Below are positions 575 through 6,615 of a stretch of DNA of 6,615 nucleotides, piece after piece. This DNA comes from a virus. Taxonomy: Duplodnaviria > Heunggongvirae > Uroviricota > Caudoviricetes. The position numbers and the translations under genes were made by a program. The notes under the pieces are model-generated. The model made no database searches, was not told the DNA's origin, and saw only the letters and a list, made by a program, of their open reading frames with translations. How positions within the stretch are numbered: position 1 is the first letter of the stretch; each line of letters opens with the position of its first letter. The stretch is taken from positions 1 to 6,615 of IMG/VR virus record IMGVR_UViG_2713896834_000003; one strand, 5' to 3'.

Positions 575-601
575 AATCCCTACCCGAAATAATACTTATT
601 A

Positions 602-629
602 GAAAAAAACCAGCCTTTGGGGAGGCTGG
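602..629 (-). terminator. Intrinsic terminator for minus-strand transcripts downstream of Q (tR'-like); the same hairpin lies just 3' of the convergent lipocalin ORF
   Basis: Perfect 7-bp GC-rich inverted repeat CCAGCCT (610-616) / AGGCTGG (623-629) with a 6-nt loop. On the plus strand it is preceded by a 7-A run (603-609), which is a U-tract immediately after the hairpin on the minus-strand RNA. Confidence 0.55.
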
Positions 630-688
630 CTAAATCAGGAAACAAGCTGTTATATGATAATAACTACGTTGTGATTCCAACATTTAAA

Positions 689-717
689 ATGTTAGACTAA
701 TGACAATCAGACAGCAA
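689..717 (-). promoter_or_regulatory. Candidate late promoter (pR'-like) immediately downstream of Q
   Basis: On the minus strand, TTGCTG (717..712), a 17-nt spacer, then TAACAT (694..689), located between the Q stop (730) and the hairpin terminator. Position is analogous to lambda pR'/tR'. Motif match only; the -10 is weak. Confidence 0.25.
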
Positions 718-729
718 CTTTTCCTTTAA

Positions 730-2787: not shown

Positions 2788-3240
2788 TTAGTGACGCGGG
2801 TCTGTTATTATGCGAGAAGGGTTTCCGTATAAAACAAGGACCTTACTTCCTTGAGTAAATAACGGATCTTTGCCTTGAACAATGGTCATTAAATTCCCAT
2901 TCTCAGTTTCGACAACATATTCCATGCCTGTTTGTTTTGTTGCTGAAGATTCGATTGCTGCCCCGGCAATACCACCAATGACTGCACCACCAACGGCACC
3001 AACGATATTAGAACGAACTCCCCCACCAAGCGCAGAACCAGCGGTTGCCCCCACGGCAGCCCCAGCAGTCCCGCCTAACGCGGAAGTCCCACTGATATCA
3101 ACCCCCCTGGCACTAATAACTGTACCAGCGATAGTTCGATTAACCATGCCCACAGAGCCAACAGAATAACTATTTGGCGATATATTTTGTGCGCATCCAA
3201 CCAACACTAAGAGTGGAGCAATTACGAATAATCGCTTCAT
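2788..3240 (-). CDS. Outer-membrane lipoprotein, SlyB/Pcp-like with glycine-zipper domain
   Basis: Signal peptide plus lipobox (MKRLFVIAPLLVLVG|C, Ala at +2), then a long Gly/Ala zipper (ALGGTAGAAVGATAGSALGGG...VGAVGGAVIGGIAGAAI), then a C-terminal segment (GMEYVVETENGNLMTIVQGKDPLFTQGSKVLVLYGNP) resembling the SlyB C-terminus. Start ATG overlaps the upstream gene's stop (ATGA). Confidence 0.7.
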   Translation of the reverse strand: MKRLFVIAPLLVLVGCAQNISPNSYSVGSVGMVNRTIAGTVISARGVDISGTSALGGTAGAAVGATAGSALGGGVRSNIVGAVGGAVIGGIAGAAIESSATKQTGMEYVVETENGNLMTIVQGKDPLFTQGSKVLVLYGNPSRIITDPRH

Positions 3241-3797
3241 TTAGCTACCCTAACAGGAAACATTGGACGAGAAAGATCAACACTTTCTAATGCTTGCAAG
3301 AACTGCGTTATGTTGTTTTGCACCGCGCGATTAACAGATTCGCGTGCTCGAACAATACCGTAGAATGCGTAACTGGCTGGAACAGTACCGGTAGACTCAA
3401 TATCCTGCGTATATATAATATCACCATTCGCACGGTTGATTATTTCATACCTTGCAATTGCTTTAGTTGTCATTGAAACACCAAAAGCAGGAACGTCAAG
3501 AGCCAACACTTTAACATTTAAGCTAACCGTATTTGGTGAACTATCACGAAAAATAGTCATTCGGTCGAGTGCTTCCTGCAAAGATTCACGCCAAATTGGA
3601 GTTATAGCCTCCATACCAGCAGTGATATCCCCTTTCTGCTCATCTGGACGAGCAAGTGATACCGTTAATGACTTAATTTCAGCATCTATTTTTTTCTGGC
3701 TAACTCCCACGTTAGGTGTTGAAAAATTCAATGGTGGCACACTAGCGCAACCTGTTAAAGAACCAATAATCATGGCTAATAATATTATCTTCTTCAT
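3237..3797 (-). CDS. Lipoprotein of unknown family (186 aa), first gene of the two-gene cargo operon
   Basis: Signal peptide plus canonical lipobox (MKKIILLAMIIGSLTG|C, Ala at +2, so predicted to be sorted to the outer membrane). AAGG-type SD 6 nt upstream of ATG 3797. Translationally coupled to the downstream SlyB-like gene. I do not recognise a family. Confidence 0.7.
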   Translation of the reverse strand: MKKIILLAMIIGSLTGCASVPPLNFSTPNVGVSQKKIDAEIKSLTVSLARPDEQKGDITAGMEAITPIWRESLQEALDRMTIFRDSSPNTVSLNVKVLALDVPAFGVSMTTKAIARYEIINRANGDIIYTQDIESTGTVPASYAFYGIVRARESVNRAVQNNITQFLQALESVDLSRPMFPVRVAK

Positions 3798-4281: not shown

Positions 4282-4575
4282 CTATTGAAAATTGCCGCGA
4301 TAAAATGCCAACACCCGCTTCATCGCGGCACTCTGGCGACACTCCTTGAAAATCAGATTCGTGCTCACCTTTCCTTCCCGTTCTTCCCTGGTAGCGAACC
4401 GGTAATACACCGTTCGCCAGACCTTACCATCAATAACTAAGATTCCTGTCCGCGCCATTTTAGCCGCAGCCTGGTTTATGCTGGTTACTGTTGCGCCTGT
4501 TACCGCAGCAACGTCCTGCGCACAGAAGCTCTTATGCGTCCCCAGGTAATGAATAATTGCTTCTTTTCCCGTCAT
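4282..4575 (-). CDS. ren: Ren protein (Rex exclusion resistance), lambda-like
   Basis: 97 aa, MTGKEAIIHYLGTHKSFCAQDVAAVTGATVTSINQAAAKMARTG...WRTVYYRFATREEREGK..., matching lambda Ren as I recall it. ATG overlaps the P stop (ATGA). Confidence 0.9.
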   Translation of the reverse strand: MTGKEAIIHYLGTHKSFCAQDVAAVTGATVTSINQAAAKMARTGILVIDGKVWRTVYYRFATREEREGKVSTNLIFKECRQSAAMKRVLAFYRGNFQ

Positions 4576-5273
4576 ACACTGGCTCCTTTCAGTCCGAACT
4601 TAGCTTTGATTTCTGCAATCTTCGCCAGAGCCTGTGCACGATTTAGAGGTCTACCGCCCATGACAGGAAGTTGTTTTACTGGTTCAGGGATCGCCTCACC
4701 ACGGTTAATTCTCGCAGTCATATGGACAAGCTCATCTGCGGCCTTACGGCGTAATTCCGCATCAGTAAGCGCATTGGCCCGCATGTTCTGATACAGGTTG
4801 GTAACCAGCCAGTAGTGCGCGTTTGATTTCCACGGATAAGACTCCGCATCCGGATACAGGCCTCGCTTCCGGCAATACTCGTAAACCATATCAACCAGCT
4901 CGCTGACGTTTGGCAGTCCGGCGATAACGGATGCTTCTTCCCGGCACCATGCAACAAACTGCCCGGGTGATGGCAGGAATGGTCGATTCTGCCGACGGGC
5001 TACGCGCATTCCAGCGTTAACCTGTTCCATTGTGGTGATCCCGTTTTCCCGAAAAGCCAGCACCCACTGGCGGCGGATTTCGTTCAGTTCGTTCTGGTCC
5101 CGGTTAGCCAGGCTCGCTGGGAAAGTTGCCAGTAACTGGCTGAATACACCGTTGATTATCTGCGCTACCTGCTGTACCTGCGGCTTTTCGTCGTACTGTT
5201 CCGGCATGTTATTGGCGATCCGGCACATCTGCTCACGGTCAAAGTTAACCATCTGTGCGGCGATGTTTTTCAT
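4572..5273 (-). CDS. P: Replication protein P (DnaB helicase loader), lambda-type
   Basis: 233 aa, matching my recollection of lambda P along its whole length (MKNIAAQMVNFDREQM...AKFGLKGASV). ATG overlaps the O stop (ATGA). Confidence 0.95.
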   Translation of the reverse strand: MKNIAAQMVNFDREQMCRIANNMPEQYDEKPQVQQVAQIINGVFSQLLATFPASLANRDQNELNEIRRQWVLAFRENGITTMEQVNAGMRVARRQNRPFLPSPGQFVAWCREEASVIAGLPNVSELVDMVYEYCRKRGLYPDAESYPWKSNAHYWLVTNLYQNMRANALTDAELRRKAADELVHMTARINRGEAIPEPVKQLPVMGGRPLNRAQALAKIAEIKAKFGLKGASV

Positions 5274-6199
5274 AAATCCACCCCGTAAATCCAGTCAGTG
5301 TTCGTCAGGTCGAGTTTTGGTTTGCCGGCTGTCACGCCAGCCTGTTGCTTGTTTCGGTTGATTTCGAGCTGGGTCCACTTGTCGCGGAGTTTGGCCGGAC
5401 TCAGCACGTTACCGGACCAGAAGTTGTCCTGGCAGGCCCAGCGGAACAGTACACACATGTCGCGGTGGTTACGTCCATCACGTTCACGCATCAGACGGAT
5501 ATCGTTAGCCCACCCTGCAAAATTCGGTTTTCTGGCTGATGGCGCGATGGTCTTCACCATGTCAAACATCCACTCTGCGGCGGTCAGGTCTTCTGCTGTC
5601 CCCCACTTGCTGCCGTTCTGAATCGCAGCATCCGCTTTCACCACAGGAAGGTCGTTTTCTGGCAGGTCAGAGGATTCGCCAGAATTCTCGGACGAATAAG
5701 GTTTTATATTGTCTTTTGTTAGTTTGTCTTTTGTGTTTACCTGATTCGGGTAAGTGCCTTTACCTGATTTGGGTAAACTTTTCTTACCTGATTCAGGTAA
5801 ATTTACCTCTTTCAGGTAAACTTTATTTTTCTTACCTGATTCGGGTAATGTTGACCATTCACTGACCACATTATTAATGCCTATATTCCGCCCGCTCTGA
5901 ATAAAAATCCCACGCTTTACCAGAACACTTTTTGCAGCAGAACACTTGTGCGGCAATATCCCGGTCAACTCGGAAAGTTGCTCGTTGCTCACCCAATCCA
6001 GTTTTTTATTAAAGCCATATGTTTTGCGCATGACAGCCAGGAAGACCAGAAGCTGGTGCTGTGTTAATCCGGCCAGCATTACAGCTTCCAGCAACTCATT
6101 TGCAATGCGCGTATAACCATCATCGAGATCTGCCACGCGCGGCTCCTTTTGTGCCGCATCCGGCACTGGAAAATTGAATATCTCAGCAGTGTTTGCCAT
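5270..6199 (-). CDS. O: Replication initiator O (origin-binding), lambdoid
   Basis: From ATG 6199 (GGGAGG upstream) the N-terminus MANTAEIFNFP parallels lambda O MTNTAKILNFG. The C-terminal region (WANDIRLMRERDGRNHRDMCVLFRWACQDNFWSGNVLSPAKLRDKWTQLEINRNKQQAGVTAGKPKLDLTNTDWIYGVDL) closely matches my recollection of lambda O. The track's longer ORF begins at an in-frame ATG at 6289 (alternative start). Confidence 0.9.
   Translation of the reverse strand: MANTAEIFNFPVPDAAQKEPRVADLDDGYTRIANELLEAVMLAGLTQHQLLVFLAVMRKTYGFNKKLDWVSNEQLSELTGILPHKCSAAKSVLVKRGIFIQSGRNIGINNVVSEWSTLPESGKKNKVYLKEVNLPESGKKSLPKSGKGTYPNQVNTKDKLTKDNIKPYSSENSGESSDLPENDLPVVKADAAIQNGSKWGTAEDLTAAEWMFDMVKTIAPSARKPNFAGWANDIRLMRERDGRNHRDMCVLFRWACQDNFWSGNVLSPAKLRDKWTQLEINRNKQQAGVTAGKPKLDLTNTDWIYGVDL
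5690..5848 (-). other. Replication origin (ori) embedded in the O gene: iteron array plus adjacent AT-rich region
   Basis: Five iterons at 5737-5848 followed, in the direction of O transcription, by an AT-rich stretch (about 5690-5736). This is the same architecture as lambda ori inside O. Confidence 0.65.
5737..5848. repeat. Five 17-bp palindromic iterons (consensus TTACCTGATTCGGGTAA), putative O-binding sites
   Basis: Direct repeats at 5737-5753 (TTACCTGATTCGGGTAA), 5760-5776 (TTACCTGATTTGGGTAA), 5784-5800 (TTACCTGATTCAGGTAA, a perfect palindrome), 5803-5819 (TTACCTCTTTCAGGTAA) and 5832-5848 (TTACCTGATTCGGGTAA). Confidence 0.8.
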
Positions 6200-6285
6200 A
6201 ATTCCTCCCGCAATGAGTGTGTTACGATTTGCACCTGAAAGTCGGTTCTGTTCCAGCAGACCGGCTTTCGCCATTTCTGAACCTG

Positions 6286-6615
6286 TCATATCGCCCCCAG
6301 CATGGTAGTAACCATCGCCATCAATGGACCAGCCAGATCTGGGTCCACACGAAACATCGACACAATACCTTCACTAATTTCCTTCAGTTTCTGGTGGCGT
6401 GGTGCGTTGAGAATGACAGCCTGTTTTGCCTCACTGAGTTCCTTTTCCATTTCAGCCAACCTAGCCATGAAGCTATCCTGCTCAACCAGGTAACCGCGAT
6501 ATTCCAGCGGTAGTACCGCCAGAATTGCCGGGGTCAGTTCACGCACGTTATTTCGGTATTTTTCAGAATCGAATTTGTTATCGAGGAAGCGGAACAGCTT
6601 CTGGCGTGCACGGCT
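6286..6615 (-). CDS. Hypothetical protein, C-terminal part only (5' end lies beyond the window); occupies the position upstream of O
   Basis: The minus-strand frame is open from the window edge (…SRARQKLFRFLDNKFDSEKYRNNVRELTPAILAVLPLEYRGYLVEQDSFMARLAEMEKELSEAKQ…TMLGAI) to TGA at 6288..6286. It does not resemble lambda cII. Its stop overlaps an ATG in the O frame. Confidence 0.5.
   Translation of the reverse strand, partial: SRARQKLFRFLDNKFDSEKYRNNVRELTPAILAVLPLEYRGYLVEQDSFMARLAEMEKELSEAKQAVILNAPRHQKLKEISEGIVSMFRVDPDLAGPLMAMVTTMLGAI

Follow-up and report, generated by a model that had tools for sequence, protein, structure and literature searches.

The interval at positions 575–729 of the window, by which we mean the whole 6,615-nt stretch of DNA analysed here, probably comprises the 3′ flank of the antiterminator gene Q and a terminator on the Q strand, placed at the edge of a block of cargo genes, with the late promoter lying beyond that cargo. 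By its sequence it is an ordinary intrinsic terminator, and cargo that separates Q from the lysis genes is a known arrangement, as in DLP12. A preliminary description of this DNA had instead proposed late promoter and terminator signals after Q that lead to no late genes. Judging from identical and closely related genomes, "no late genes" is an artefact of the window edge: holin, endolysin and Rz genes follow on the Q strand outside the window. This removes the false lead of an orphan late promoter without late genes, and, as a by-product, the analysis defines the sequence of what is likely the late-promoter module used in the QuuD-type branch of the Q21 family.

Gene content of the window

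Read on its minus strand, the window holds the early-right and nin regions of an E. coli lambdoid prophage (Table 1). The match of Q to PF06530 is full-length (173 bits vs a cut-off of 26, positions 1–118 of the 118 in the profile), no other Pfam family was found on the protein, and RefSeq labels it as antiterminator Q family protein. Its sole matches in the PDB are the Q21 structures 6P18 and 6JNX, which are distant (E 2e-8 over 83 residues).

Table 1. Features of the window relevant to the Q-downstream interval, ordered by position.
Feature	Position	Strand	Basis
IS3 right end including terminal inverted repeat, inserted in the lipocalin gene	1–122	plus	match boundary at 123
Blc-like lipocalin gene, 3′ part; cargo (moron), convergent with Q	123–574	plus	Pfam Lipocalin_2, E 4.8e-44
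Intrinsic-terminator-like hairpin and U-run, same orientation as Q	601–631	minus	terminator scan and fold
Q 3′ flank, 98 nt, no supported promoter	632–729	minus	coordinates, promoter scan, shuffles
Antiterminator Q, QuuD-like, PF06530 (Q21 family)	730–1107	minus	Pfam E 2.2e-51
nin-region genes ybcN/ninB, ninE, ybcO, rusA, ylcG		minus	ORF list and RefSeq annotation of identical DNA
Two lipoprotein ORFs	2788–3797	minus	between ren and ninB
ren	4282–4575	minus	ORF list and RefSeq annotation of identical DNA
P	4572–5273	minus	ORF list and RefSeq annotation of identical DNA
O-like gene	5270–6289	minus	ORF list and RefSeq annotation of identical DNA

Several observations concern other parts of the window. 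The two lipoprotein ORFs encode a YajG-family lipoprotein of 186 aa beside a glycine-rich lipoprotein of 150 aa and are probably another cargo pair of the nin region. Within the O-like replication gene, a palindromic iteron of ~18 nt (TTACCTGATTCGGGTAA) occurs in five copies at 5732–5848, and this array presumably represents the origin. The length of the O gene, 1020 nt in the window vs 930 nt in the lipocalin-type locus L001, suggests a variable copy number of the iteron or of a linker. An identical Q protein (tblastn 100%, residues 24–125) is encoded on a contig of 2.1 kb that carries the label of a Candidatus Nanosynbacter MAG (L012, JARKOR010000135.1), in which the Q flank has two base differences from the window; this contig is most likely a binning contaminant.

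A predicted terminator on the Q strand

The preliminary description had reported a strong hairpin with a U-tract after Q, and this part is well founded. The hairpin has a stem of 9 bp with 5 G-C pairs (631–623 against 616–608) and a loop of 6 nt (622–617), and is followed on the minus strand by seven U (603–609). Its fold of −14.9 kcal/mol corresponds to z −4.1, and none of 200 shuffles was equally stable. In the terminator scan it was the only terminator-like site in positions 1–1400 of the window and, likewise, the only one between Q and the holin gene in L001. By sequence criteria, the hairpin thus has the features of a rho-independent terminator and is predicted to terminate transcription. 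It also sits between two convergent genes, as had been described: the lipocalin ORF ends at 574 on the opposite strand, 34 nt from its stop codon to the hairpin. Because the plus-strand side reads CTAAATCAGG, which is not a U-tract, the terminator should be one-directional and face the Q strand, the only strand for which the scan reported it.

In phage 1H12 the hairpin is identical despite ~10% divergence of its flanks. The exact hairpin was found in 119 IMG/VR loci, all of which share the same context barring IS5 and IS256-like insertions. Such insertions lie at the window equivalents of ~694 (IS5) and ~680 (IS256-like element) in other copies (L110, L042). These IS5 and IS256-family insertions in the flank, like the IS3 in the lipocalin gene, mark the cargo region as a repeated target of insertion sequences.

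Late genes beyond the window edge

The ORF list of the 6,615 nt holds no S, R or Rz inside the window. The left end of the window is formed by the IS3 fragment, and copies free of the element align to the window only from position 123 on. In NZ_OZ547614.1, which is 100% identical, an IS3 transposase is annotated between two lipocalin fragments, and in the source genome the lipocalin is, by this comparison, a pseudogene split by IS3. An intact lipocalin gene of 525 nt is present in L001 and in the phages 1H12 and IdasGreatGrand. A 154-aa ORF opening at a GTG at position 110 was rejected as an artefact, its start lying inside the IS end.

Followed along the Q strand of NZ_OZ547614.1, the hairpin is succeeded by the lipocalin 3′ fragment, IS3, the lipocalin 5′ fragment (on the opposite strand) and ybgA, and then by a frameshifted HTH/AraC-like ORF, essD (holin), rrrD (endolysin), Rz and nohD. 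The holin gene begins 4.36 kb past the Q stop, ~3.6 kb to the left of window position 1; in copies without IS3, the distance from the Q stop to the lysis genes is ~3.1 kb. The AraC/HTH-like ORF is frameshifted in L001 and L002 and intact in phages. In the source-like genome L002 (2536–3749), nohD, the gene for the terminase small subunit, adjoins truncated tail-fibre genes.

This arrangement is widespread. At least 80% of a query comprising positions 1–1300 was found in 693 genomes, many of which have the same locus minus IS3, and the order Q, lipocalin, ybgA, ORF, holin, endolysin, Rz also occurs in complete phage genomes, with identities of 99.4% for IdasGreatGrand and ~94.5% for 1H12 and several Lambda_ev phages. 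The locus is therefore a standard lambdoid arrangement of hundreds of E. coli genomes and of viable phages. With minus-strand lysis genes found to the left of position 1 and the lipocalin gene merely interposed, the claimed absence of late genes has to be abandoned. The late region had been suggested to be either deleted or displaced by cargo; displacement by cargo is what the related genomes exhibit, and a deletion does occur, beyond the lysis genes and not after Q. Judging from its gene order, the best-matching prophage is defective, with the head and tail genes deleted downstream of the lysis cassette and nohD.

A conserved, probable late-promoter module in the QuuD-type Q family

As a set of Q homologues we used 23 genome loci with 66–88% identity from Escherichia, Shigella, Citrobacter, Trabulsiella, Pantoea, Providencia and Xenorhabdus. 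The sequence TTTACGNNCGTAAA was found downstream of Q and on the Q strand in 21 of the 23 loci, the remaining two being short contigs that end earlier, and in most of the loci a conserved module begins 5–40 nt after the Q stop. This module consists of an A-run, TTTAC(G/A)(TA/AT)CGTAAAA, 7 variable nt, a −10-like element TAnnnT, 3 nt and a second −10-like hexamer nAnnnT, usually AAGAGT; either hexamer may be the promoter −10, and one of them may act as a pause element. After ~20 nt the module is followed by a G+C hairpin with a U-run and then by tRNA genes or late genes. Among 54 distinct module sequences, the palindrome TTTACG(TA/AT)CGTAAA, which overlaps the −35-like hexamer, is always centred on TA or AT. 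In the same sequences, A2 of the second hexamer (module position 33) is conserved in 96% and T6 (position 37) in 100%, neither being imposed by the filter, and in its pattern of conservation this hexamer has the look of a −10-like element.

The linkage of the module to this Q family holds in a larger sample. Retrieval via the module yielded 120 IMG/VR loci. In 106 of them a Q of the same family precedes the module on the same strand, at a distance of 26 nt to 3.3 kb; in the remaining 14 the upstream sequence is shorter than 3.5 kb, too little for a judgement. Among the 106 contigs, Q and the module are no more than 60 nt apart in 16, 61–300 nt in 20, 301–2000 nt in 67 (mostly ~1.68 kb) and above 2 kb in three. 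The long distances are, by the genes they contain, cargo insertions, namely lipocalin and ybgA in the type studied here and nmpC in the DLP12 type. In DLP12-type loci, 2.86 kb separate quuD from the module, which comes after nmpC::IS5, precedes essD by ~200 nt and has a terminator of its own, and the genomes of mEp332 and 4C10 have the order Q, nmpC (convergent), module, S. Another example of the module occurs in L007 at 7240–7330.

To our knowledge, the Q-binding element has never been defined for the QuuD-type subfamily, and a Q-loading site in the window was judged only by means of the conserved module as a stand-in. The module, tightly linked to QuuD-type Q genes, probably serves this subfamily as late promoter and as the region where Q loads, with both promoter activity and the action of Q at this place predicted.

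In the lipocalin-type locus L001, the generalised module pattern matches once, as TTTACAATCGTAAAAACTACACTATGATACCCAGAGTG at 7692–7729 on the Q strand (minus); this site comes 46 nt past the end of ybgA, with the AraC-like ORF and the holin gene further downstream. No match was obtained in 200 shuffles, even with 2 mismatches. Its hexamers, TTTACA-16-TATGAT, agree with the consensus at 10/12 positions and form the best sigma-70-like site between Q and holin. Among the 119 IMG/VR loci with the exact hairpin, 75 extend 3 kb or more downstream, and in 74 of these the module, in the variants AGAGTG or ATAGTG, is located 1778–1781 nt from the hairpin. The uninterrupted distance of 1.78 kb becomes ~3.04 kb with the IS3 of the source genome, which puts the module ~2.4 kb to the left of position 1. 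Unlike in almost all relatives, the module of lipocalin-type loci has no close canonical terminator; the sole candidate before the holin gene (L001 6596–7700, minus) is a weak hairpin of 5 bp followed by a U-run, with an energy no better than that of shuffles.

The Q 3′ flank and its promoter-like motif

The motif TTGCTG-17-TAACAT, on which the preliminary description had based its promoter, is present as described: TTGCTG at 717–712, a 17-nt spacer and TAACAT at 694–689. Its agreement with the consensus, 3/6 plus 4/6 and hence 7/12, is below the threshold of 9/12 in our promoter scan, which did not report it. Dinucleotide shuffles of the 155-nt interval contained on average 2.7 sites that were equal or better, with at least one such site in 90% of the shuffles, and the motif is therefore uninformative when taken alone. 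TTGCTG is constant in the available copies and TAACAT is replaced by TAATGT in 1H12 (A2 and T6 kept), the copies being too little diverged for such conservation to indicate constraint. Searches of the window for the late-promoter module of the family gave no match at up to 3 mismatches, nor any nhmmer match at E ≤ 100.

An AT-rich stretch at 654–662, ~+21 to +29 from the hypothetical start, contains TATTAT and TATCAT (TACCAT in 5 copies) as candidates for a −10-like pause element, which do not correspond to the conserved second hexamer of the module. TTGGAA-15-TATCAT was discarded as an alternative promoter on account of its wrong spacing, and the scan did not report it. By eye, flank and module have some likeness, with TTGCTG resembling TTTACG, TAACAT resembling the −10 element and TTTAAATGTTGG resembling GTTAAGAGTGG, and with ACAGCTT before the hairpin in both. 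The notion that 632–729 is a decayed duplicate of the module nevertheless found no support: local alignments to 19 module sequences were no better than those of shuffles and nhmmer found nothing. The exception was L017, a likeness of terminator to terminator with p ~0.003 before correction for 19 tests.

Most copies do not differ from the window in the block 641–680, at a low sequence diversity overall, and the 95-nt flank as a whole folds better than its shuffles (z −3.6). A scan of the whole window against Rfam with permissive thresholds gave three sub-threshold matches only. The one that falls in the interval, to RF02278, a family of toxic sRNAs, was dismissed as evidence for an RNA family at 28.6 bits vs a gathering score of 50 (E 0.011); the alignment covers UGUUUCCU and the terminator and is essentially one of terminator against terminator.

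The 9-mer ATATAACAG, followed by G/T-rich sequence, occurs in three places: at 647–655 of the window (minus), at ~4460 in L007, after quuD, and at ~7570 in L001, where it is ~115 nt downstream of the module. An apparent homology of the Q flank in the window with that of DLP12 in a MAFFT alignment, which includes this shared 9-mer, was set aside, as the alignment score equalled the shuffle mean; it is due to chance or unexplained.

Alternative explanations

It is very unlikely that the interval works after the fashion of lambda, as the preliminary description had it in assigning a pR′-qut-tR′ layout. TTGCTG-17-TAACAT would then be pR′, Q would load nearby, and the hairpin, acting as tR′, would give rise to a constitutive 6S-like RNA of ~80 nt, while polymerase modified by Q would pass the hairpin and proceed, antisense to the lipocalin gene, to the lysis genes. 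The succession of Q stop, promoter-like motif and hairpin with U-tract does resemble that of lambda and phage 21, late genes do follow downstream on the same strand, and TTGCTG is constant in the copies seen; yet a 7/12 motif is expected by chance in 155 nt at the frequencies given above, and the window lacks the module linked to the Q family, which is present 1.78 kb further on with a 10/12 promoter. In the sister phages of the nmpC type, it is this module and not the Q flank that precedes S, and in some copies the proposed transcript is broken by IS5 and the IS256-like element. The assigned layout is not supported, its motif being at chance level and the late-promoter module of the family situated outside the window, and since the stretch from Q to the hairpin has no supported promoter, no 6S-like RNA between promoter and terminator is predicted either.

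Two further explanations retain the hairpin and give it another role. That it is a bidirectional terminator, ending the mRNAs of both lipocalin and Q, would suit its place between convergent genes 34 nt past the lipocalin stop, and the plus-strand RNA does form the same hairpin; we nonetheless regard this as unlikely, considering that the plus-strand tail CTAAATCAGG has no U-tract and that the terminator scan reports the minus strand only. At best, the hairpin would be a weak terminator or a 3′-end stabiliser for a lipocalin mRNA that is truncated by IS3 here anyway. A small regulatory RNA, arising from the 3′ UTR of Q or from an unrecognised promoter near TATCAT/ATATAACAG (647–659), appears highly improbable. 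A short leader and a hairpin with a long U-tail, here of 7 U, would give such an RNA the usual shape of an Hfq-binding sRNA, with CCUCC in the hairpin resembling an anti-Shine-Dalgarno sequence, and the folding of the 95-nt flank, the sub-threshold match to the toxic sRNA family (28.6 bits vs 50) and the invariance of 641–680 between the window and most copies are in line with it. Against this stand an Rfam score far under its threshold, obtained from an alignment of terminator on terminator, and the lack of any promoter-like site at 647–659 that passes the scan; diversity among the copies is too low for a covariation test, and no target was identified. There remains a slight chance that the Q 3′ flank and hairpin might release a small RNA of the Hfq type with CCUCC, which would place a prophage riboregulator at the cargo boundary.

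Cargo between Q and the probable late promoter

The reading preferred here, a Q 3′ flank and Q-strand terminator at the edge of the cargo, would account for the locus as follows. A cargo block of ~2 kb, made up of the 98-nt flank, the hairpin, the lipocalin gene on the opposite strand and ybgA, fills the space between the Q stop and the −35 element of the probable late promoter, a gap that measures only 5–40 nt in relatives. Unmodified transcription from the early-right and nin regions that passes through Q would be stopped at the hairpin, and such termination may both spare the lipocalin gene from antisense transcription and keep these transcripts off the late operon. The late promoter served by Q would be the module downstream of ybgA, followed by the AraC-like ORF, holin, endolysin and Rz.

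The block of lipocalin and ybgA fits a moron or cargo cassette of phages by its presence/absence polymorphism among relatives that are otherwise collinear and by genes unrelated to the phage cycle. Phage Perceval has nmpC in the corresponding place, where it behaves as a moron, and its lysogens express this gene autonomously at a level 10-fold above the prophage background (PMC9928086); by analogy with nmpC only, the lipocalin and ybgA cargo may be expressed autonomously in lysogens as well. In a milder sense, two aspects appear to be new: in the QuuD-type Q family, cargo has apparently been inserted repeatedly between Q and the late promoter and not after the promoter, and in the lipocalin type a dedicated terminator on the Q strand is predicted to insulate the cargo.

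Comparison with known systems

Among the closest parallels is the Q-pR′-tR′ cassette of phage 21 (curated in OL657228), reportedly described by Yin et al. in 2019. The Q protein of phage 21 and the one studied here belong to the same Pfam family, PF06530. The late region of phage 21 runs from a −35 element, seven nt past the end of Q, through Q-binding repeats, the −10 element, the start site, the pause element TAAGCTG and a terminator to tRNAs and S. The module of the relatives keeps this order of parts: its −35 lies a few nt past the Q stop, then come a −10, a hexamer TAAG... that looks pause-like and, within ~60 nt, a terminator, ahead of tRNAs or S. There are differences, too. Q here has 125 aa vs 162 aa in Q21, with the match (E 2e-8) confined to 83 residues; the Q21 binding repeats ATTGAGCA/AATGAGCA are absent from the module, which has a palindrome over the −35 instead; and the cassette here neither adjoins Q nor lies inside 575–729. 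In the QuuD-type subfamily, the Q-binding element would be of another kind than the phage 21 direct repeats.

The Q protein of lambda belongs to a different family from the PF06530 Q. With pR′-6S RNA-tR′ of lambda, the locus shares only the general idea of a hairpin terminator placed after Q in the same orientation, and unlike in lambda, the stretch from Q to the hairpin has no supported promoter.

Among known elements, phages of the DLP12/nmpC type (434B, mEp332, 4C10, Perceval), with quuD, nmpC and essD-rrrD-rzpD, have Q DNA that is 87–88% identical to Q here. As here, convergent cargo comes right after Q and the module is displaced beyond the cargo, in the DLP12 type to a place directly upstream of the lysis genes. 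The cargo differs, being a porin in the DLP12 type vs lipocalin and ybgA here. The terminators differ as well: the one beside Q faces the cargo strand in the DLP12 type and the Q strand here, and the module of the DLP12 type keeps an adjacent terminator, whereas that of the lipocalin type has none. According to a secondary source, the lysis operon of DLP12 is under the control of a Q-type antiterminator and has its own upstream regulatory region (PMC7918800).

In Stx phages, too, cargo separates Q from the lysis genes, with several kb from Q to S (PMC6266700). Their cargo is located downstream of pR′-tR′ and is co-transcribed with the late genes. Unlike this, lipocalin and ybgA lie upstream of the module here, with lipocalin on the opposite strand, and cargo in such a position, be it nmpC or lipocalin with ybgA, would therefore not be late-transcribed in the manner of stx, which affects the expression to be predicted for such cargo genes.
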